A stretch of DNA of 64,000 bases from sequence record OP870147.1; one strand, written 5' to 3'. The translations under genes were made by a program, and so were the position numbers. Source of the stretch: Escherichia phage vB_Eco_F31. Shown here one piece after another: positions 9,578 through 64,000 of the stretch (positions within the stretch are counted from its first letter, which is position 1; each line of letters begins with the position of its first letter). Below the pieces are notes generated by a model. That model was given only the letters and a program-made list of their open reading frames with translations. It did no database searches and had not been told where the DNA came from.

Positions 9578-9607
9578 CCAAAAAGCCCCAACCATAAGGA
9601 AGGGGCA
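9578..9607 (-). terminator. rho-independent terminator (GCCCC...GGGGC + U5) after the 9613..10077 gene
   Basis: Stem-loop plus CTTTTTGGCAT on the minus strand. Confidence 0.5.
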
Positions 9608-9612
9608 TTCTA

Positions 9613-10077
9613 TTATTTAATTTGTTTAGCAGACCAGATACGGTCTTTAATAAGTTTTTGGATATCTTCAACATACTCAAGGCTATGAGCGTGAGGATTA
9701 TCTTTGAAGCTATGTGCTCGTGCCAGTTTCTGTCCTTCTGTTTTGATTACTAAAAGCTCTTTAAGAATTGCTTCATACTTAGAAATAATTCCTTTGGCGA
9801 TATTTTTTTCTTGAGCTGCTTTAGGGTCCGCTTTTGGCGCAGGTGCTTTACCTGTAGCTTTCTGGAACAATTCACCTGATGCAGCTAGGCTTTTAAAAAC
9901 TCGGCTAACAGTATTAGCATTAGTAAAACCTTCGGCTTTAAAATCTCTAATAAAACGGAAACGTTCTTCATCAGAGGCGTCTTTGTAAGAATATTTACCT
10001 GCTTGAATTGCTGCAATCGCAGCGGCTTTTACATCTGAACTAGATTGTTCAGTCAAAAATTCAGCGTATGATTTCAT
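9613..10077 (-). CDS. internal protein-like (CTS-bearing, MKSYAEFLTE...)
   Basis: 154 aa; N-terminus matches MKxYxEFxxE capsid-targeting pattern; Lys/Ala-rich. Confidence 0.55.
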   Translation of the reverse strand: MKSYAEFLTEQSSSDVKAAAIAAIQAGKYSYKDASDEERFRFIRDFKAEGFTNANTVSRVFKSLAASGELFQKATGKAPAPKADPKAAQEKNIAKGIISKYEAILKELLVIKTEGQKLARAHSFKDNPHAHSLEYVEDIQKLIKDRIWSAKQIK

Positions 10078-10121
10078 GTTGCTTTTCCTAAATTAATTAA
10101 CTTATCTATTTATTATTATGC

Positions 10122-24400: not shown

Positions 24401-24550
24401 TCGGAACGACGTAAACTGATGAGCCCATTATTTGATGCGTCCGGAACAACATTCTCTAGATTTAGAGATTTGGTTGAACAACGGTTAATCGATAATGTAG
24501 GAAATCCAAGAGACCCCGTGAATCCACCGCAGGTTAAATTAGATGAATGA
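21452..24550 (+). CDS. 7: gp7 baseplate wedge initiator
   Basis: 1032 aa ORF, same length as T4 gp7. Confidence 0.93.
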   Translation: MTVKAPAVTSLRISKLSANQVQIRWDDVGANFYYFVEIAETKTADGEIIPPASYRWINLGYTPNSNWFENSLDPLTSYIIRVSTAAEGFERSDWVYTEIFESFQTNAYTFQHMIEMQLANTFIREKFTNNNMAYVDFNNDTIMAALMNESFQFSPAYADISSIKNFIIGENEYHEIQGSIQQVCHDINRVYLMESEGILYLFERYQPVVKVSNDKGQTWKSVKLFNDRVGYPVSRTVYYQTDYTTYVLGYDKLFYGRKSTDVRWSADDVRFSSQDITFAKIGDQLNLGYDVEIFGNYASLPANVSRIAEAIVCNDDYVYVAARDKVRFIKTSNAPIDSDPLSPTYSERLFEQETFNITGNPKAVCYKMDSVGGKIFALIIGEVVNLNDDPRTTPIVDSADKGVYVLDHDAGTFKRVFGNTEEERRRIEPGYTSMSTDGVELSISSSNFKFLESDIVDDPKTQIKYGLIGAVKYEYPREWLADKHYHMMAFISTEDSQWESFTPQPMEYYAEPFFSYSRKSGTRCWINNSDKAVVIYSDLLYTKVIENHPLSSSDREVHEYWKDGDCTIVMPNVDFTGFKKYASGMIFYKSSGEIISYYDFSYRVRDNVSIIWKPTNIFLTASLQNQEKDTTWTPVEENGITDPDLRPLLTTMMPESYLLDNTNFEAFCEAYIQYLSDGYGTHYNNLLNLIKNQYPREEHAWEYLWSEIYKRNIYLNAEKRDLVSRFFESRSYDFYSTKGTEASYKFLFKVLYNEDVEIEIESSSGTEYDIIIESDSLTEDLVGQTIYTATGRCNVTYIERSYSKGKLQWTVTIHNLLGRLIQGQEVKAERLPGFEGEIVRGIKGKELSQNNIDYINRGRAYYVMKIKSKLPSSRWKSDVLRFVHPVGFGFIAITLLTMFINTGLTLKHVETIINKYKNYKWDSGLPTKYADRVAKLDPQGNVEFDPITGKAIYEIGPMAGQDYPLPEDYNAENNNSIFQGQLPSERRKLMSPLFDASGTTFSRFRDLVEQRLIDNVGNPRDPVNPPQVKLDE

Positions 24551-25577
24551 TTCAAGTGTTATCTATCGTGCAATAGTTACATCAAAATTTAGAACAGAAA
24601 AAATGCTGAATTTTTATAATTCAGTTGGGGATGGAGATGATAAGAACTCCATTTATATTACGTTCGGACGTTCAGAGCCTTGGGCGTCAAATGAAAATGA
24701 GGTGGGCTTCGCCCCACCTTATCCTACAGATTCTGTTCTTGGTGTTACTGATATGTGGACCCATATGATGGGTACCGTTAAAGTTTTACCTTCAATGTTA
24801 GATTCTGTTATTCCTAGGCGTGATTGGGGAGATGTGCGATATCCGGACCCTTACACGTTTAGAATTAACGATATAGTCGCGTGTAATACTGCTCCGTACA
24901 ACGCGACAGAAGTTGGAGCTGGTTGGTTAATTTACCGTTGTTTAGACGTCCCTGACGTAGGGCTCTGTTCAATAGAATCTTTAGATAATAAAGATGAATG
25001 TCTTAAATTGGGTGGTAAATGGACTCCGTCTGTTCGTTCTATGTCTCCTCCTGAAGGCAGAGGCGATGCTAATGGGGTTATCGAAACCGGTGATGGATAT
25101 ATTTGGGAATATCTTTATGAGATTCCTGCCGATGTGTCAATTAACCGTTGCACTAATGAATACCTTGTAGTTCCATGGCCGGAAGAAATTAAAGAAGACC
25201 CAACCCGTTGGGGATATGAAAATAACTTAACTTGGCAACAAGATGACTATGGCTTGATTTACCGTGTTAAAGCCAATACGATGCGGTTTAAAGCATATTT
25301 TGATTCGGTTTATTTCCCTGAGGCAGCTTTGCCTGGTAACAAGGGTTTTAGACAGATATCAATTATCGCAAACCCGTTAGAAGCTAAGAAAAATCCAAAT
25401 GACCCTAATGTTAAAGCAGAAAAGGATTATTACGACCCTAGAGACTTGCAACGTCATTCTGGTGAAATGATTTATATGGAAAACCGACCACCTGTTATTA
25501 TGGCAATGGACCAAACAGAAGAAATTAACATTTTGTTTATGTTTTCCCAACCCGTTGGGGATATGAAAATAACTTAA
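24543..25577 (+). CDS. 8: gp8 baseplate wedge protein, C-terminus altered by tandem duplication (10-aa extension SQPVGDMKIT)
   Basis: 344 aa ORF; native stop displaced by a 347-bp duplication; without it the protein would be 334 aa. Confidence 0.85.
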   Translation: MNDSSVIYRAIVTSKFRTEKMLNFYNSVGDGDDKNSIYITFGRSEPWASNENEVGFAPPYPTDSVLGVTDMWTHMMGTVKVLPSMLDSVIPRRDWGDVRYPDPYTFRINDIVACNTAPYNATEVGAGWLIYRCLDVPDVGLCSIESLDNKDECLKLGGKWTPSVRSMSPPEGRGDANGVIETGDGYIWEYLYEIPADVSINRCTNEYLVVPWPEEIKEDPTRWGYENNLTWQQDDYGLIYRVKANTMRFKAYFDSVYFPEAALPGNKGFRQISIIANPLEAKKNPNDPNVKAEKDYYDPRDLQRHSGEMIYMENRPPVIMAMDQTEEINILFMFSQPVGDMKIT

Positions 25578-25892
25578 CTTGGCAACAAGATGACTATGGC
25601 TTGATTTACCGTGTTAAAGCCAATACGATGCGGTTTAAAGCATATTTTGATTCGGTTTATTTCCCTGAGGCAGCTTTGCCTGGTAACAAGGGTTTTAGAC
25701 AGATATCAATTATCGCAAACCCGTTAGAAGCTAAGAAAAATCCAAATGACCCTAATGTTAAAGCAGAAAAGGATTATTACGACCCTAGAGACTTGCAACG
25801 TCATTCTGGTGAAATGATTTATATGGAAAACCGACCACCTGTTATTATGGCAATGGACCAAACAGAAGAAATTAACATTTTGTTTATGTTTT
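25199..25892. repeat. perfect direct tandem duplication, 2 x 347 bp (copy 1 25199-25545, copy 2 25546-25892)
   Basis: Base-by-base comparison of the two copies; ORF 25601..25894 re-encodes the last 96 gp8 residues in a shifted frame. Confidence 0.9.
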
Positions 25893-25897
25893 AATTA

Positions 25898-25922
25898 GGG
25901 AGCCTTCGGGCTCCCATTTTTG
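25898..25922 (+). terminator. rho-independent terminator after gene 8 (GGGAGCC-TTCG-GGCTCCC + T-run)
   Basis: GC stem, tetraloop, ATTTTTG tail. Confidence 0.7.
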
Positions 25923-25926
25923 TATC

Positions 25927-25934
25927 TATAAATA
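25927..25934 (+). promoter_or_regulatory. late promoter TATAAATA for gene 9
   Basis: Exact octamer 33 nt upstream of gene 9 ATG. Confidence 0.7.
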
Positions 25935-25966: not shown

Positions 25967-26839
25967 ATGGCATTTTTTAAGCAAACTCCTAAACAATTAA
26001 TCGATACCGGCGAAATTGGTAATGCCTCAACAGGTGATATCTTATTCGACGGTGGTAATAAAATAAATGACGATATCAACGCTATTTACAATGCATTTGG
26101 CGATCAACGTAAAATGGCCGTAGCAGATGGAACCGGACCTACAGGTCAAACTATTCATGCCACAGGATATTATCAAAAAGGAAAGGCGGTCGATTATCAA
26201 ACTCCTATTAAACCAGGCACCATGCATGATATTGATGCTTCTGATGGCGGTGTGATTGTTATTATTGACCGTCCTGAATTAGGTGACTCTGTAGAATTCA
26301 TAAACTCTAATGGGTCTATTTCTGTTAACAATCCTTTAAGTATCCAAGTAACCGATGGTTCGATTAAAGGTGTTCTTAATAATCTTGTTATTTCCACCCC
26401 TTATACCCATGTTGTTCTTCGTTGTGTTGAACTTAATGGACCAACTTCAGTATGGAATTATTCTACTGATAGCATGTTTGGGCAGAAAGAATCTCCTGTC
26501 GATGGGACTTGGAGTCTTACAGGAAACACAGTTTCTATTCCTCTGTTTTATCGCACGGATTATAACATGGCTAAATTGCTTGTTACATGCCAATCCGCTG
26601 ACGGTAGAAAAATAAAAACATGCGAAATAAATATTCTAATAGATACAATTAACTCAGAAGTTCTTTCTACCGAATTTGCAGTAATGCGAGTTGGTAATGT
26701 AGATGAAACCGACGAGATTGCTAATATTAGCTTTAGTATTATTAACAACTTTGCTACTATGACGATTACATCCGATATTATTGGATTACGTTCAGCAGTT
26801 AAAATTATCTCAACTCAGAAAATTGGGGTCGCTCAATAA
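25967..26839 (+). CDS. 9: gp9 baseplate wedge / long tail fibre socket
   Basis: 290 aa, MAFFKQTPKQLIDTGEIGNASTGDILFDGGNKINDD...; synteny. Confidence 0.92.
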   Translation: MAFFKQTPKQLIDTGEIGNASTGDILFDGGNKINDDINAIYNAFGDQRKMAVADGTGPTGQTIHATGYYQKGKAVDYQTPIKPGTMHDIDASDGGVIVIIDRPELGDSVEFINSNGSISVNNPLSIQVTDGSIKGVLNNLVISTPYTHVVLRCVELNGPTSVWNYSTDSMFGQKESPVDGTWSLTGNTVSIPLFYRTDYNMAKLLVTCQSADGRKIKTCEINILIDTINSEVLSTEFAVMRVGNVDETDEIANISFSIINNFATMTITSDIIGLRSAVKIISTQKIGVAQ

Positions 26840-28644
26840 TGAAACAAAATATTAAAATTGGTAACGTCGTTGATGACGGACAAGGCGATTACCTTCGTCG
26901 AGGTGGTGAAAAAATAAATGAGAACTTTGACGAAATCTATTATGAATTAGGTGATGGTGAAGTTCCTTACGCCGCTGGTGCGTGGAAGACTTATGATGCG
27001 GCTGATGGTCTTAATCTTAAGGCCGCTTGGGGTAAATCTTATGCAATTAATACTACTTCTGGACGAGTTTCGGTAAATCTTCCTAAAGGGACAATTGCAG
27101 ACTATAATAAAGTTATTCGTGCTCGTGACGTATTTGCAACTTGGAACATTAACCCTGTTACTTTAATTCCGGCAAACGGAGATACGATTAAAGGTTCTTC
27201 ATCTCCGGTAGAAATTAACGTTCAGTTCTCTGATTTAGAATTAGTTTATTGTGCTCCTGGACGTTGGGAATACATCAAGAACAAACAAATTGATAAAATA
27301 GTTAGCTCTGACATTAGTAATGTTGCTCGTAGAGAATATCTGGTTGAAACCCAAGGTCAGACCGATTTCATGGATGTTTTTAACGGGACCTCTTATAATG
27401 TTAACAACATTCGCGTAAAACATCGTGGCAACGAATTGTACTATGGTGATGTATTCAGTGATAATAGTGATTTTGGTTCTCCAGGCGCTAATCCTGGTGA
27501 ACTGGTTGCACTCGATGGATTTAATATTAGATTACGCCAACCGTGTAATGTTGGGGACACTGTACAAATTGAGACATTCCTAGATGGTGTTTCTCAGTGG
27601 CGTAGTTCATATACTCGTCGCCAAGTTCGCATTTTAGATAGTAAATTGACTGCTAAAAAGTCTATTGACGGAAGTATTTACGTCACTGATTTGAGTACGT
27701 TCCGGTCTATTCCATTTACAGCATTTGGTATTAATCCTACGGAACCACCTAACCCGAATTCGTTAGAAGTTCGCTTCAATGGTATTCTCCAAGAATTAGC
27801 TGGTACTGTTGGAACTCCTATTTTCCGTTGTGAAGGTGTGGATGCTGATTCTGAAGAGTCATGCGCTAATCTCGGTGGGACGTGGACTCAATCGTATACA
27901 GATTATGCGATTGAATATACTGATAATATCCCTAGCGCAATTCTGTTTGACCGTCAATTTGAAGACCAAGACATTATTACCATCACATGGTTTAATAACG
28001 ATTTAGGAACTCTTCTTGAAATGGAAGAAATCCTTGATGTCGCTGATGAGAAATATGTTTCTCAAGGGTCTAACATTGAAATTACTGGTGACGTTGCATT
28101 AACCGATTTCGATAAAATTGGATGGCCTAATGTAGAACCTGTTCCTAAGTATGAACGTGAATTCTCGACTATCTCGGCAATATTTGATACAATTTATCCT
28201 GTCGGGACTATTTACGAAAATGCGGTTAACCCTAATAATCCGGCAACTTATTTAGGTTTTGGTTTGTGGAAAATTTGGGGACAAGGCAAAGTATTAGCAG
28301 GTTGGAATGACGACGCGTCGGATCCTAATTTTGCATTAAATAATAATGACCTTGACGTCAATGGTAACCCTACTCATACCGCAGGTGGTACCGTTGGTGT
28401 AACAACCGTCACATTAGAAAATGCTGATTTACCGGCTACACAAACCGATGAAAAGGTTCTTATTTCTGATGATAATGGTACAGTAATTATAGGCGGTTGC
28501 CAATATGACCCGGATGAAGAAGGTCCTATTTACACTAAATATCGTGAAGACCATGCAAAGACTAACGGATCTCATGTTCCAGCGCGTTCTATAACTAATA
28601 TTCAGCCATCTATAACTGTATACCGTTGGGTAAGGATTGCATAA
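26839..28644 (+). CDS. 10: gp10 baseplate wedge / short tail fibre attachment
   Basis: 601 aa; synteny 9-10-11-12. Confidence 0.92.
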
Positions 28645-29303
28645 TGACTGTACTTAATACAAAGGCGGGAGTTATTTCCCGTCATGCTGATTTTTTGAAT
28701 TACAGAAAAAATCCAGCTCAAATTGATGTTTTAAACAACCAAGCTGTAGGTTCCGTGACTATTTCTCAGTTAGCTCGCGGTTTTTATGATGCTAACGTAG
28801 AATCTGCAATAAATGATGTCCATAATATGGCACGAGCTGATATTGGTACTGTTGTCACAAACACTTCAGGAGTATCGCCTGAAGGTACAGCACAAGTTGA
28901 TTATTGGACTTTTTCTGGTGATGTTCTCGACGATACTTTGGCCCCTGGAACGCCGGTCGTTATTAACGTATTTGGACTTGCTGTTAAAGCAACAATCGGT
29001 ATGACTGATAACGAATTAACGGCACAAGTTCGTATAGCTTTACAAGAAGCCATTGCTAATCAAATCGCTATTTCTTCTTATAAAGACCATCCGTCTGAAG
29101 GTAATAAACTTCAGGTGACATATTTAGATAACCAACGTCATGTGTTGCCAACATATGCTTCGTTTGGTGTAACAATTTCGCAAGAAATTTTGTCTGAAGC
29201 AAAATCCGGATACGGAACATGGAATTTATTGGGTGCCCAAACGGTTACTCTTGATAACCATGATACTCCTACCGTTTTCTACCACTTTGTGAGAGCCTCA
29301 TGA
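28644..29303 (+). CDS. 11: gp11 baseplate wedge / STF connector
   Basis: ATG 28644 overlapping gp10 stop; [18 protein letters not shown]...; 219 aa. Confidence 0.92.
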
Positions 29304-30883
29304 GTAATAACAATACATACCAACACGTTTCAAATGAATCTATTTACGTTGAATTCGACCCTACGGGGTCGAATTTTCCAGACACAGTCACTAATGTCCA
29401 AGCCGCATTAGCTGCCATTTCTCCTTCAGGTGTTAATGGCGTACCGGAAGCAACAACTACTACACCTGGAATTATTCAAATAGCCACTCCACAAGAAGTT
29501 ATTGATGGATTAGATAATAGTAAAGCTGTTACTCCGGCATCACTGAATGCTCGTCTACAATATCCTAATGCAACCGAAACTCAATATGGTTTAACTCGTT
29601 ATGCTACTGAAGATGAAGCAGTAGCCGGAGTAATTGATGCATCGTCAATTACTCCGCTTAAATTGAATCAAAAAATAGACAATGTATTCCAGACAAAAGT
29701 ATCAACAGAAGCAACAAATGGTGTAATTAAAATTTCAACTTCTGCTGCGGCATTAGCTGGTTCTGACGATACAACGGCAATGACCCCGTTAAAAACACAA
29801 CAATTAGCAATTAAACTTATTTCACAAATTGCTCCAAATAATAGTGACGCCACCGAATCTATTACAGGTGTTGTTCGTTTAGCTACAGTTGCACAAGCAC
29901 AACAAGGCACCCTGCGTGAAGGCTATGCAATTTCACCTTATACCTTTATGAATTCAGTAGCATCAGAAACTAATAAAGGTGTCGTTAAACTAGGGACACA
30001 GACTGAAGTAAATAGTAACAACTCTTCAGTTGTAGTGACCGGCGCAACATTAAACGGGCGTGGGGCTACAACTTCTTTACGTGGAGTTGTTCGTTTAACT
30101 ACACAAGCGGGTAGCCAATCAGGTGGTGATGGTTCTTCTGCCCTTGCTTGGAATGCTGATGTTATCCACCAACGAGGTGGTCAAACTATTAATGGCACTC
30201 TTCGCATTAATAATACGTTGACGGTTGGTTCTGGTGGTGCTAATATAACGGGTAATGTCAATATGACCGGTGGTTATATTCAAGGCAATCGTATTGTGAC
30301 TCAAAATGAATTAGACCGAATTCTTCCAGTTGGCGCTATTACAATGTGGGCTGCAGATAGTTTGCCGAGTTCGGACTGGCGTTTCTGTCACGGTGGGACA
30401 GTTTCTGCTTCAGAATGTCCGGTATATGCTTCCAGAATTGGGACACGATATGGTGGTAGTTCTTCTAACCCAGGCTTGCCCGATATGCGTGGATTATTTG
30501 TTCGCGGCTCAGGTCGTGGTAACCATTTAACTAACCCTAATGTTAATGGTAATGACCAATTCGGTAAGCCTCGTCTGGCGGTAGGTTGTACCGGTGGATA
30601 TGTTGGTGAGGTGCAAAAACAACAGATGTCATATCATAAGCATGCTGGCGGTTTTGGTGAACATGACGATGCAGGAGCATTCGGTAATACTCGTCGTTCA
30701 AACTTTGTTGGTACTCGTAAAGGACTTGACTGGGATAACCGTTCGTATTTTACTAACGATGGATATGAAATTGATCCAGCGTCTCAGCGTAACTCTAAAT
30801 ATACCCTGAATCGTCCAGAATTAATTGGAAATGAAACTCGCCCATGGAATATTTCTTTAAACTATATCATTAAGGTAAAATAA
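29300..30883 (+). CDS. 12: gp12 short tail fibre
   Basis: 527 aa, same length as T4 gp12. Confidence 0.93.
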
Positions 30884-32331
30884 TGACTGATATAACTCTG
30901 GTAGATTTACCATATGTTGACGGCCCACCAGACGCGGGTCAGAGTCGTATTGAATGGATTAAAAACGATGAAGAAATAACAGGTGCTGACACAAAATACG
31001 GTTCTGAAGGTGTAATGAACCGTCCTATTGTTGAAGTTCAACGTAACGTAGAAGCGTTAGATGTTAATATTAAAACTATAGCATCTTCTTTGAATACGGC
31101 CAATGAAGATATCAAAGCTATTCAAGGTATTTTAGATGTTTCTGGGGATGTTGATGCTCTTGCACAGATAGGCCAGAACACCCAAGATATCGATGTCATT
31201 AAAGTCACAGTTCAAACCCATGCCAGTGAATTGAATGATTTGAATGAACATATTGATGCGAATACTGACGATATTGGTGTTTATAATCAGGAAACAGATT
31301 CAGTTTATAGAACGGTTCGTAACGACCTGCTTTGGATTAAAAATGAATTAGGACAATATACCGGTCAAGATATTAATGGGGTTCCTACTCCAGGAAATGA
31401 TAGCACTGGTATGAAACGCCGTATTATGACTAATAGCTCCGTAATTGTTGACCACGGTGTTCGATTAACTGATTTGGAAACTAAATTTGCTGATTCTGAC
31501 GTCGGCTCTTTAACTGTTGAAGTTGAACACTTGCGCGAAGAAATGGGGCCTCGCACTTCTTTCACTACTCCAGTGTTTAGTCGTCTTTCCGGTATTGATT
31601 TAACTTTGTCGCGTCAAAATGCTGACTTGGATGGCATTAAACAGTCTATTGGGTATCCTAATACGACTTCTATTATTACTACAACTAATGCGAATAGTTC
31701 AGCAATAAACGACATTAATCTTGAGCTCAATCAATCTGGTGGTATTAAACCTCGTTTGACTACAGTAGAAACTGCCATTGGCGCCGATGATTTGCCTACT
31801 ACAATCCAAGGACGTATTAAACTCAATACTGATGCTATCGGAGCATTGAATACTGTTGTCGGCTCTGATTCTTCGTCAGGATTGCGTTTTAATGTGTCAT
31901 GGTTAAATAACGTAGTTGGTGTTGACGCTTCAGGTGGGAAACCGGAACCAGACGGCTCTTTGCTTTATCGTACTCGAGAGCTTGAAGGAACTATCGGTGG
32001 GCTGAGTAATGACATTCAGAACATTCAAACTGATGTTGGGACTAATTCCACAGGAATTAAGGGTTCTGTAAACACATTAAATACTCTTATAAATGGCACC
32101 AACCCAAATGGTTCGACTGTTGAAGAACGCGGTATATTGCCTACAGTTAAAAGTCATGATACGACAATTAATGGTTTAACTTCTAGAATTGCTACTCTTG
32201 AAACTGATTTGGCCGCTGCAGAAGCTGAAATCCAAACTCTTAAGGACGCTGGATATATTGAAGATGCTCCTTCAGACGGTAAATTCTATGTTCGCAAAGA
32301 TGGTGCATGGGTTGAACTTCCTACAGCTTAA
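30883..32331 (+). CDS. wac: fibritin (whisker antigen control)
   Basis: 482 aa coiled-coil protein with C-terminal foldon-like GYIEDAPSDGKFYVRKDGAWVELPTA. Confidence 0.93.
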   Translation: MTDITLVDLPYVDGPPDAGQSRIEWIKNDEEITGADTKYGSEGVMNRPIVEVQRNVEALDVNIKTIASSLNTANEDIKAIQGILDVSGDVDALAQIGQNTQDIDVIKVTVQTHASELNDLNEHIDANTDDIGVYNQETDSVYRTVRNDLLWIKNELGQYTGQDINGVPTPGNDSTGMKRRIMTNSSVIVDHGVRLTDLETKFADSDVGSLTVEVEHLREEMGPRTSFTTPVFSRLSGIDLTLSRQNADLDGIKQSIGYPNTTSIITTTNANSSAINDINLELNQSGGIKPRLTTVETAIGADDLPTTIQGRIKLNTDAIGALNTVVGSDSSSGLRFNVSWLNNVVGVDASGGKPEPDGSLLYRTRELEGTIGGLSNDIQNIQTDVGTNSTGIKGSVNTLNTLINGTNPNGSTVEERGILPTVKSHDTTINGLTSRIATLETDLAAAEAEIQTLKDAGYIEDAPSDGKFYVRKDGAWVELPTA

Positions 32332-32337
32332 TGAAAA

Positions 32338-32351
32338 GGGCCTTCGGGCCC
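32338..32351 (+). terminator. hairpin GGGCC-TTCG-GGCCC after wac (weak T tail)
   Basis: GC stem with TTCG loop. Confidence 0.4.
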
Positions 32352-32363
32352 TAAAGGATTTAT

Positions 32364-33290
32364 ATGTCAGGTTATAATGCACAAAACCCTAAAGAATTAA
32401 AGGATGTAATATTACGTCGTTTAGGCGCTCCTATTGTAAATGTTGAATTAACTACAGACCAAATTTATGATTGTATTTCACGAGCGTTAGAACTTTATGG
32501 CGAATACCATTTCGACGGGTTGAATAAAGGTTTCCATGTATTTTTTGTTGATGACGAAGAAAAATATCGTCACGGCGTATTTGATATGCGTGGTTCTAAC
32601 GTATTTGCTGTAACAAGAATTATAAGAACAAATGTTGGCTCTATTACTTCAATGGATGGTAATGCAACTTATCCATGGTTCACTGATTTCCTTTTAGGAA
32701 TGGCAGGTGTTTCAGGTGGTATGGGTAGTAATTGTGGTAAATTCTACGGTCCGAACGCTTTTGGCGCTGACCTCGGGTATTATTCTCAATTAGTATCTTA
32801 TATGGGTATGCTTCAAGATATGATTGCTCCTCTTCCGGATTTTTGGTTTAATTCTGCAAACGAGCAATTAAAAGTAATGGGTAACTTTAGACAGAAAGAT
32901 GTCATTATCGTTGAATCGTACGTTCGCTCTTATATCGAGACCCATAAGATGGTAGGAAATACAGTAGGGTACGGTCAGGTTGGTCCTCGTGATTCATGGT
33001 CTATTTCTGAACGTTATGATAATCCAGACCATAATTTGGTCGGACGACGAGTTGGTGAAGATCCTGCAACTAAACAAGGCGCATATAACAACCGCTGGGT
33101 TAAAGATTACGCAACTGCATTAGCTAAAGAGCTTAATGGACAAATTCTTGCTAAACATCAAGGTATGATGTTACCGGGTGGCGTCACTGTTGATGGTGTT
33201 CGATTAATTGAAGAAGCTCGTTTAGAGAAAGAAGCTTTACGAGAAGAGTTATATTTACTAGACCCTCCTGCAGGTATTTTGGTAGGTTAA
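32364..33290 (+). CDS. 13: gp13 neck protein
   Basis: 308 aa; synteny. Confidence 0.9.
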
Positions 33291-41523: not shown

Positions 41524-41759
41524 TGGACGATTTAATTCAAGCTATTAAATCAAACGACCTCGTTGCTACTCGAAAGTTTTTTGAAAGTGCAATGGCAGAA
41601 AAAGCGGTTCGTTTGATTGAAGCACGCAAAGCAGAAATCGCTTCTCAATTTTTGATTGAAGGCGAAGAACCTGAAGAAGAAAAGAAAGCTAAAGCTTCGG
41701 AAGACGACGCTGATGAAGGCGATGACGACGAAGACGAAGATGATGAGGACGATGAATAA
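41523..41759 (+). CDS. 67: prohead core protein gp67
   Basis: 78 aa with poly-acidic C-terminus. Confidence 0.85.
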
Positions 41760-42858: not shown

Positions 42859-43671
42859 ATGATCAAAGAACAACTTTTGAAAGAAGCTCAGAACATCGAG
42901 ACTTCAGTTGCTCTTAATAGTGTTTTCGAATCAGTAGAACTGTCTCCGGACGTTAAAGCTAATTTCAGCACTGTATTCGAAGCCACCGTTAAGCAGGAAG
43001 CAGTCAAACTGGCTGAATCTCATATCAAAGCCATCGCCGAAAAGGCCGAAGAAGAAGTTGAAAAGGCCAAAGAAGATGCTGAAGAGAAAGCTGATAAAAA
43101 ATTGGCTGAACAAGCTTCTAAATTCCTAGACCATCTTGCAAAAGAATGGCTCGCAGAAAACCAAATCGCAGTTGATAAAGGCATTAAAGCTGATTTGTTC
43201 GAATCCATGCTTGGTGGTCTGAAAGAACTGTTTGTTGAACATAACGTTGTTGTTCCAGAAGAATCTGTAGATGTTGTAGCAGAAATGGAAGAAGAGCTGG
43301 CCGAACATAAAGAAGAAACCGCTCGTTTGTTCGAAGAAGTTACCAAACGTGATGCATATATCAATTACGTTCAGCGTGAAACCGCTATTAATGAAAGCGT
43401 AAAAGACCTGACTGAATCTCAGAAAGAAAAAGTTATTGGCCTGGTTGAAGGTATGGATTATTCTGACGCATTTGGTACTAAGTTAACTGCTATTGTAGAA
43501 ATGGTTAAAGGTTCTACTAAAGAAGAAGCCGCTATTACCGAAAGTATAAATACAGTTGACAATGACGCTGCCGGTCTTAATTTTGTTGCCGAAGCAGTTG
43601 ACACTACCACAACTCAGGTAGAACAGAATTCTAATGTAAGTTTATATGCGAAAGTCGCATCTCGTTTCTAA
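42859..43671 (+). CDS. 22: prohead core scaffold protein
   Basis: 270 aa, acidic coiled-coil. Confidence 0.92.
   Translation: MIKEQLLKEAQNIETSVALNSVFESVELSPDVKANFSTVFEATVKQEAVKLAESHIKAIAEKAEEEVEKAKEDAEEKADKKLAEQASKFLDHLAKEWLAENQIAVDKGIKADLFESMLGGLKELFVEHNVVVPEESVDVVAEMEEELAEHKEETARLFEEVTKRDAYINYVQRETAINESVKDLTESQKEKVIGLVEGMDYSDAFGTKLTAIVEMVKGSTKEEAAITESINTVDNDAAGLNFVAEAVDTTTTQVEQNSNVSLYAKVASRF
43545..43552 (+). promoter_or_regulatory. late promoter TATAAATA inside gene 22 3' end, candidate P23
   Basis: Exact octamer about 137 nt upstream of gene 23 ATG. Confidence 0.45.
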
Positions 43672-48655: not shown

Positions 48656-50074
48656 TTATGGATATGTATAGATGATACCAGTTTCCAAAGCAGTTTTATG
48701 GATGATGTATCCATTACGTGATTCTTGAACATCAACTTCTGGATAATCTTTCATCATCTTCTGAAGAGTGTAACGATGCAGGTAGTATTTACTATCTGGA
48801 TCTTCAGTTTTCCAATCTTTACCTTCTTCAGTCATTTTTTGGATTTCATCCATAACCCACCATCCGCACCAGATGTAAGCTGAAGTACGATGTGGAAGAG
48901 GATGAACATAAGGTAATTCACCTTCTGGTTCTGGAGCAACTTTATCGGTTACCTGAACTTGACCTTCTGCTGTAATAGTTTTGCTATCGTAATCAGTTGC
49001 AGTAATAGTTGCAGTAACTTCAATAGTTTGACTTCCAATAGATGAGGTATCAACGGTATATACATTAGTTGACCCTTCTACAGGAGAAGAATCTTTCTTC
49101 CATGAATACTCAATTTGCGCTTCTTCTGGAGCATCAGTGACATTAGCGGTAAATGTAGCCGAAGCATCTTGCTGAACGTTAATAGAAGGAGGAGTCAATG
49201 TAACCCGTGGATTCATTGTCTTCTTATTAACCGTTAATGATACTTCATTCGAAGTAACTTCCTTTGCATCATAATCTGTCGCGGTTACTTGGGCTACACA
49301 CTTAATTCTTTTTACTCCACTTGTAGTCGGAGTATAGCTAAATGTAGAGTTAGTTTCTCCACCAACCTGTGAATCATCTACATACCACTGATACGTAGCA
49401 GACGCTCCAACCGGTTGAGAAGCTAAGGCAGCAGTAAATTGAACTGGGGTTCCAATTACTCCGGCTGAAGGACTATTGGGAGTTACTGCCAACGTAGTTG
49501 TCTGTGTCTTTTTATTAACAGTCAGTGACACTTCATTAGAAGTAACGCTTAGTGCGTCATAATCTGTTGCGGTTACTTGGGCTACACATTTAATTTTTTT
49601 AACTCCGCTTGTGGTAGGAGTGTAATTGAATGTAGCAGAAGTTGCTTCGCCAACAGGAGAATCATCTACATACCATTGATAAGTAGCGTTTGCGCCTGAT
49701 GGCTGCGAAGCTAAAGCGGCGGTAAATTCAATAGCTGTTCCTATTACTCCAGCGTCAGGGCTATTAGGAGTTACAGCTAAGGTAGTCGTTTGTGTCTTGT
49801 TTTGAACTGTGATAGTTGTAGTAGCTTCTGCTGTTTCAGCTTCAGCGTCTGGAACTGTATTTGTTGCAACTACTTTAATAGTCTTTTGACCGGCAGGTCC
49901 TTTTAGTACATAACTAAAAGTTGCTTCAGCTCCATCTTGTGGAACATCATCCACAGACCAAGCATATGTAATAGGTCCATCTCCAGTTTGACCACTGGGT
50001 GTAGCAGTAAACTGCTTAGTCTCATCTATAACTCCAGTAGGTGTTTTAGGAGTTATATCAACTGTAAAAGCCAT
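48656..50074 (-). CDS. hoc: Hoc outer capsid decoration protein with four Ig-like domains
   Basis: 472 aa; N- and C-terminal segments match T4 Hoc pattern; internal 96-aa unit duplicated in tandem. Confidence 0.9.
   Translation of the reverse strand: MAFTVDITPKTPTGVIDETKQFTATPSGQTGDGPITYAWSVDDVPQDGAEATFSYVLKGPAGQKTIKVVATNTVPDAEAETAEATTTITVQNKTQTTTLAVTPNSPDAGVIGTAIEFTAALASQPSGANATYQWYVDDSPVGEATSATFNYTPTTSGVKKIKCVAQVTATDYDALSVTSNEVSLTVNKKTQTTTLAVTPNSPSAGVIGTPVQFTAALASQPVGASATYQWYVDDSQVGGETNSTFSYTPTTSGVKRIKCVAQVTATDYDAKEVTSNEVSLTVNKKTMNPRVTLTPPSINVQQDASATFTANVTDAPEEAQIEYSWKKDSSPVEGSTNVYTVDTSSIGSQTIEVTATITATDYDSKTITAEGQVQVTDKVAPEPEGELPYVHPLPHRTSAYIWCGWWVMDEIQKMTEEGKDWKTEDPDSKYYLHRYTLQKMMKDYPEVDVQESRNGYIIHKTALETGIIYTYP
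49223..49798. repeat. diverged in-frame tandem duplication (2 x 288 bp) inside hoc encoding two Ig-like domains
   Basis: Protein units KTQTTTLAVTPNSP...SLTVNK repeated with about 84% amino-acid identity. Confidence 0.8.
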
Positions 50075-63609: not shown

Positions 63610-64000
63610 GGTCCAAATACGTCTTCAAACGAATCCGCTTCTGTTTTATCAAAACGGAACCCTTTAATAATTGGAAGGAAAATACCTACAGTTCCTTCAC
63701 GTCCTTTAGAATGAACCCAACCATTGCATTCACAATCAGCGATACGTCCAATTAATTTACCTTCACGAGCTTCGGCCATTAATCGTTCACGGTCCAAATC
63801 ATGACGCTCATCTAAAGGAATAAGAACCTTTACACCATCAACTGTTTTATGAGTTGTATCTTTAAAACCTGAACCACAATCGGTTGTAATACGACGACAA
63901 CGTGATACGAGTTCGACACCACCTAATTTGTTAGGGTCTTTAGAGTGTTCATAGTATCCTACAACTTCTAAAGCGATATCAATAACTTCTTTAAATTTAA
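63588..64000 (-). CDS. hypothetical protein, 5' end outside window
   Basis: Reading frame stays open from 63588 to the right window edge (manual translation ...DPNKLGGVELVSRCRRITTDCGSGF...); ORF-track start at 63797 is a TTG. Confidence 0.45.
   Translation of the reverse strand, partial: KFKEVIDIALEVVGYYEHSKDPNKLGGVELVSRCRRITTDCGSGFKDTTHKTVDGVKVLIPLDERHDLDRERLMAEAREGKLIGRIADCECNGWVHSKGREGTVGIFLPIIKGFRFDKTEADSFEDVFGPWSQTGL

Follow-up and report, generated by a model that had tools for sequence, protein, structure and literature searches.

Organization of the gene 8 locus

The 64,000-nt stretch of DNA analysed here (the window) belongs to a Mosigvirus, an RB69-like relative of T4 infecting E. 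coli, and the best phage records are ~98-99% identical to it. Its genes follow the standard order (gp53-gp5-gp6-gp7-gp8-gp9-gp10-gp11-gp12-wac-gp13 and onward), and within the wedge cluster the order gp6-gp7-gp8-gp9-gp10-gp11-gp12 is the same as in relatives, with gene 8 sitting between genes 7 and 9. The features at the 3′ end of gene 8 are the following:

24543-25577, plus strand: gene 8, baseplate wedge protein gp8, 344 aa as written (334 native plus 10 extra residues)
25199-25545, plus strand: copy 1 of the repeat, the native gene 8 3′ end (codons ~220-334) together with the T that opens the native TAA stop
25199-25212, no strand: palindrome CCCAACCCGTTGGG, starting at the first base of the unit, which is the left breakpoint; present again at 25546-25559
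25545-25546, no strand: junction between copy 1, ending in TTTATGTTTT, and copy 2, starting with CCCAACCCGTT; 0 nt in common
25546-25892, plus strand: copy 2, the same as copy 1; the last two bases of the native stop codon (AA), the terminator and the gene 9 promoter come after it
25601-25894, plus strand: mechanical open reading frame (ORF) in copy 2, TTG start, 97 aa, re-encoding gp8 residues ~238-334
25898-25922, plus strand: gene 8 intrinsic terminator, the hairpin GGGAGCC-TTCG-GGCTCCC (25898-25915) and then a T-run
25927-25934, plus strand: T4-type late promoter motif TATAAATA, preceding gene 9
25967-26839, plus strand: gene 9, baseplate wedge/long tail fibre connector, 290 aa, intact

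The segments 25199-25545 and 25546-25892 match at every base and abut directly as two copies of 347 nt each, and Tandem Repeats Finder reported the repeat with a period of 347, 2.0 copies, 100% matches and a score of 1388. A perfect repeat of 347 nt cannot be a product of chance. The base before copy 1 is A, where the unit ends in T, and the base after copy 2 is A, where the unit begins with C. Since both flanking bases differ, the duplication measures exactly 2 x 347 nt and has 0 nt of microhomology at its junction, which can also be written as AACATTTTGTTTATGTTTT joined to CCCAACCCGTTGGGG. The terminator begins 5 nt past the right breakpoint and is annotated at the equivalent place in NBG1. 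Matches to the late promoter motif number 18 in the window, versus 7.6 expected; the terminator hairpin and the promoter motif of this locus occur once each, downstream of copy 2. The original prediction had described two identical, abutting copies without junction microhomology, followed by an intact terminator and gene 9 late promoter, and on all these points direct comparison, Tandem Repeats Finder, the differing flanks and the single location of each element bear it out.

The encoded gp8 and its C-terminus

Because 347 equals 3 x 115 + 2, the frame enters copy 2 shifted after F334, adding SQPVGDMKIT (codons at 25545-25574, stop at 25575-25577). The ORF thus reads ...ILFMF-SQPVGDMKIT, and the C-terminal peptide as encoded with this tail ends in ILFMFSQPVGDMKIT. 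When one copy was removed in silico, gp8 became a protein of 334 aa, equal in length to T4 gp8 (PDB 1n7z). Pfam PF09215 matches gp8 with E = 4e-183, residues 10-334 falling on profile positions 1-337 of 337, and the T4 gp8 structure PDB 1n7z matches with E = 7e-216, with 1-334 aligned to 1-334. Judged by sequence similarity, the gene 8 product belongs to the T4 gp8 baseplate wedge family PF09215. The ORF at 25601-25894 matches positions 241-337 of the Pfam Phage-Gp8 profile; it is a mechanical, putative reading frame. Three further claims made earlier from the letters alone, namely the frame shift with its added residues and stop, the second encoding of the gp8 C-terminus in copy 2 and a 334-aa gp8 without the duplication, agree with the translation of ORF 24543-25577, the Pfam match and the collapsed gp8, respectively.

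The gp8 protein is a dimer present in 12 copies per baseplate, constitutes an obligatory step of a strictly ordered wedge assembly and acts as a chaperone for gp6 (PMC3004832). All 120 cluster representatives of gp8 homologues (243-348 aa) end at a common C-terminal position, 118 of them with an [F/L]-x-F ending, and the length differences in the family are all internal. F334 is invariant in a 40-sequence alignment (56-88% identity), in which none of the 39 homologues has residues beyond it. The ORF as written overruns this conserved end by 10 residues, whereas the collapsed version terminates on it. In an AlphaFold model of the extended gp8 (mean pLDDT 79.7), the last β-strand comprises residues 326-333 and residues 337-344 of the added tail have pLDDT < 50; the tail is predicted to be disordered, following the last β-strand. 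On these sequence comparisons a 10-aa tail on gp8 is unprecedented among homologues, yet its lethality is not provable.

Comparison with relatives and public collections

With one copy removed, the window aligns to two relatives without gaps, 4954 versus 4954 nt, with only 69-77 SNPs. In BLAST searches against 12 relatives, the left alignments stop at 25545 and the right alignments start at 25546, re-using 347 nt of each relative. A total of 675 phage records match the region and, among the matches listed, 40 of 40 span 1954 nt, which is 2301 - 347. A 300-nt query centred on the junction likewise gave a two-piece match in 30 of 30 among the records listed. A 52-nt junction-spanning probe matched 0 of 50,697 phage records, in which a control probe of the same size on the native gp8 end found 104 matches.

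The junction was also looked for more widely. A 39-mer across it was not found in IMG/VR, JGI metagenomes or GTDB genomes, the 344-aa gp8 product was not found in a public collection of 153 billion gene positions, and neither the exact 97-aa protein of ORF 25601-25894 nor the exact gp7 protein of the window is on record in public collections. An identical gp9 is present on 23 public contigs, and in 10 of the 10 inspected a 334-aa gp8 ends 72 nt upstream. The original prediction had proposed a comparison with related T-even genomes that might carry the duplication; none of those searched does. We note that absence of the junction elsewhere speaks only for the relatives and not for the source DNA, whose strain is not in those collections; a 41-mer specific to the window is missing from IMG/VR, JGI metagenomes and GTDB genomes alike. 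A single copy in relatives and colinearity regained on collapse are, at the sequence level, what an overlap artefact would be expected to produce.

We considered whether the junction might join two strains and rejected this, as SNP density against seven relatives is unchanged across 25545/25546 and the window-specific bases at 25202 and 25446 are present in both copies. The only shift in relatedness lies near 26.5 kb, away from the junction, and is towards ENA scaffold MUNK18-1 scaffold_5, from a wastewater-type metagenome. This scaffold differs from the window by 0-5 SNPs per 500 nt over 26500-32500 (gp9-wac) and is ~1.6% divergent left of 26.5 kb, a pattern of ordinary recombinational mosaicism of T4-like phages.

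Over 50 kb compared with NBG1, the window otherwise shows only small or compensating indels, a ~510-bp insertion and an in-frame extra Hoc domain. No frameshifted structural genes were seen elsewhere in this comparison, and we discarded a low-quality (e.g., long-read) assembly as an explanation, since the frameshifts that would hint at one were not seen. The ~510-bp insertion (window 9607-10117) carries an ORF at 9613-10077 on the minus strand, encoding 154 aa without a Pfam match. Two other kinds of repeated sequence were observed in the window. Positions 26051-26104 and 26902-26955, at the 5′ ends of genes 9 and 10, are 70% identical over 54 nt because the two genes share the N-terminal domain PF07880. 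Tandem repeats of 21 nt (2.1-2.5 copies) at 41703-41755 and 43039-43083, in the prohead core/scaffold gene region, encode acidic or Lys/Glu-rich stretches.

End overlaps in related records

We checked five related records with arbitrary starts for terminal repeats. Exact untrimmed end overlaps are present in two of the five, LR027386 and PQ671645. LR027386.1 (vB_Eco_mar008P4) has an exact terminal direct repeat of 127 nt, a typical assembler k-mer size; sister records of this set have lengths ~120 nt apart. PQ671645.1 (Escherichia phage DCP548, described as a 'complete genome') has an exact terminal direct repeat of 111 nt, and the record ends inside gene 8, at places equivalent to window 25386 and 25496. 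As the record ends split gene 8, gp8 is unannotated in DCP548. Were this record rotated by cut and paste, the 3′ end of gene 8 would come to be perfectly duplicated in tandem, just as it is in the window. This class of artefact therefore occurs in sister records of the window, and by this count (two of five checked) untrimmed end overlaps are common in Mosigvirus records.

Such overlaps are a recognized product of assembly. Contigs built from circular templates are left by assemblers with a repeat at both ends (PMC8116208, CheckV), and contigs may exceed 100% of the genome, for which a check for duplicated regions is advised (PMC8785237, Phage Annotation Guide). The gene 8 repeat resembles the overlaps described in these two sources in its perfect identity, its gene-independent position, its lack of need for boundary homology and the absence of the repeat from sister genomes. 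It differs in that the gene 8 copies are adjacent and internal, needing a later rotation or concatenation, and in that the 347-nt unit is not of a typical k-mer size. We also considered BEU50 as a record that might run past 100% of its genome and dropped it, since it showed no simple terminal repeat. This record (OM632671.1, Escherichia phage BEU50) is 193,190 bp long, ~24 kb above its relatives, and is flagged UNVERIFIED_ORG; a simple terminal repeat does not explain its length.

Hairpins at both breakpoints

For every position of the collapsed window, we computed the folding energy of the next 24 nt downstream. At the left breakpoint the downstream 24 nt fold at -5.4 kcal/mol, within the top 3.7% of window positions. 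At the right breakpoint they fold at -14.7 kcal/mol, within the top 0.03% and among the strongest hairpins of the window. The fraction of position pairs 347 nt apart that match both breakpoints is 1.6e-5, a pattern noticed post hoc, so that the figure is indicative only. Breakpoints flanked by hairpins argue against randomly chosen boundaries, whether those of an arbitrary circular break or those of a planted change. They fit a contig break with an unmerged bridging read or contig equally well as a stalled replication fork, so the hairpins do not help to decide between an artefact and a real event.

An unmerged overlap as the probable origin

T4-like genomes are circularly permuted, and a de novo contig therefore closes on itself, often with the same sequence at both ends. 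We consider it likely that the duplication arose as an artefact of finishing or assembly, in which overlapping ends of 347 nt were set end to end without being merged. A contig with repeated ends would have been opened and rejoined so that it began at the usual rIIA/RB69 origin, and an untrimmed end overlap would then have become a perfect internal tandem duplication where the old contig ends met. By an alternative route to the same result, two contigs, or a gap-closing read, may have been concatenated at a contig break. Such a break would here fall just ahead of the gene 8 terminator with its strong GC hairpin.

The placement of the window is consistent with this course of events. Base 1 of the window aligns, on the plus strand, to position 63,648 of RB69, 64,294 of NBG1, 64,457 of JK36, 63,862 of JN02 and 63,824 of PTK, all of which are records that follow the RB69/T4 start convention. 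The alignments suggest that the window may be the second tile of 64 kb (bases 64,001-128,000) from a record whose start was moved to that of RB69/T4. If so, the record should contain, at some point, a join between the ends of the original contig. Under this placement, an internal site in a re-oriented record is more likely than a terminal-repeat contig wrapped around into the window. The re-orientation of the source record and a join at exactly this site are steps that we infer.

The structure of the repeat can be compared with what an unmerged overlap would leave. Its copies are abutting and 100% identical, with boundaries unrelated to codons or homology, as in overlap artefacts. The 0 nt of homology at the junction also fits an artefact, because a cut-and-paste join requires none; ~56% of random joins are expected to be without shared bases on either side. 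An overlap equal to an assembler k-mer size is not what we find, the unit being 347 nt versus the 111 and 127 nt of the sister records, although neither overlap-layout assemblers nor manual joins have to leave an overlap of such a size. Since assemblers do not usually work with k-mers of 347, the exact route is not a simple de Bruijn end overlap; it calls for an overlap-layout assembler, concatenated contigs or a gap-closing read that was pasted in. Hairpins at both breakpoints are not predicted by a purely arbitrary circular break, and to explain them one must further assume a contig break at the terminator hairpin.

Alternative explanations

A retained duplication can be seen in the same window. 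The Hoc-like outer capsid protein (window 48656-50074, minus strand) has 472 aa versus 376 aa in NBG1, owing to one extra Ig/PKD-like domain of 96 aa. This Hoc repeat (49217-49798) is a genuine, diverged domain duplication and shows what a retained duplication looks like. Both it and the gene 8 repeat are tandem repeats within a structural gene. The Hoc repeat, however, keeps the reading frame (288 nt, 96 aa), has copies that are 78% identical and contributes a whole folded domain, whereas the gene 8 repeat breaks the frame, has copies with 0% divergence and contributes no domain to the protein.

The last 347 nt of gene 8 might instead have undergone a genuine, very recent and homology-independent tandem duplication in the phage stock, which we regard as unlikely. 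A fork could stall 5 nt before the terminator hairpin and re-initiate upstream at the small palindrome, or the bases of hairpins or cruciforms could be cleaved and then ligated, and hairpin-forming sequence does lie immediately 3′ of both breakpoints. Viability of such a phage is conceivable: the full gp8 coding sequence with its 334 native residues, the terminator and gene 9's own promoter are all kept, and a 10-aa tail predicted to be disordered beyond the last β-strand (326-333) might be tolerated. The rest of the assembly is, moreover, of high quality. Tandem duplications known from T4 include the domain duplications of gene 37. They also include the rII duplications (PMC8262927), and the gene 8 repeat is, like these and the minihomology rearrangements of T4 (Mosig; Wu et al. 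2021, PMC8262927), a head-to-tail tandem of headful-compatible size. Its junction is what sets it apart: in one systematic sequencing study, which also restates older observations of Mosig's laboratory, the junctions of T4 rearrangements all share at least 3 nt and up to 6-7 nt (PMC8262927), whereas at gene 8 this mark of T4-type illegitimate recombination is missing, with 0 nt shared on either side. The T4 rearrangements were also strongly selected and unstable, whereas the gene 8 repeat is without evident selection and no selective benefit is apparent. Ordinary T4 homologous recombination needs ~50-150 nt (PMC8262927), and a perfect repeat of 347 nt exceeds this, so that it would be expected to collapse readily unless selected. 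Unlike the T4 cases, the product alters an invariant C-terminus. The duplication is out of frame, no gp8 homologue tolerates a C-terminal extension, and none of the relatives or metagenomes searched carries it.

Two other origins seem to us much less probable again. The junction may have arisen in vitro or on a minority molecule and been promoted by the assembler, which we would consider very improbable. In that case a chimera from library ligation or PCR, or a rare rearranged molecule, would supply a low-coverage edge from 25892 to 25199, and the 347-nt loop would be traversed twice. Polymerase stalling before a strong hairpin would account for the right breakpoint, and ligation for the 0-nt junction. 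In very deep phage data sets, chimeric k-mers can pass coverage filters. This origin nevertheless calls for an odd assembler decision at one site of an otherwise clean assembly, and at the level of the assembled sequence it looks the same as an unmerged overlap. The least probable origin, with only a slight chance in our estimate, is a deliberate or synthetic change, either in an engineered phage or by insertion of the duplication by hand. Perfect identity and a clean junction would suit such a change, but foreign sequence, tags, scars and selectable elements are all missing, vector sequence would be left separating the copies after a single-crossover integration, a duplication that breaks the frame has no obvious design purpose, and random boundaries would rarely fall beside two hairpins (the 1.6e-5 given above).

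Beyond the bare existence of the repeat, we found nothing that supports a biological or an engineered reading. The original prediction had named a very recent event, an assembly artefact and an engineered change as possible origins; on the evidence gathered, the artefact is favoured, and the biological and engineered origins are not. An artefact is favoured because none of the records or metagenomes searched shares the junction, gp8 homologues all end at one C-terminal position, the junction has 0 nt of homology, the record is apparently re-oriented and sister records carry end overlaps.

Significance

If the duplication is an artefact, its consequence is one of housekeeping only: 347 nt would be deleted from the record, leaving gene 8 with a normal 334-aa product in the annotation. 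Where a circularly permuted phage genome shows perfect, abutting repeats that are out of frame, automated scans should then presume finishing errors pending reads.

There remains a small likelihood, in our judgement, that this is a real Mosigvirus duplication, with a viable phage whose essential gp8 has a 10-residue tail lacking in natural homologues and with hairpin-associated illegitimate recombination as its source. In that event, the gp8 C-terminus, invariant in 120 homologue clusters, would be able to bear an extension. Sites bounded by hairpins would also be shown to give rise to duplications in T4-like phages with no minihomology, a modest yet concrete piece of evidence on illegitimate recombination, and the locus would offer a rare snapshot of hairpin-associated illegitimate recombination before homologous recombination collapses the repeat.
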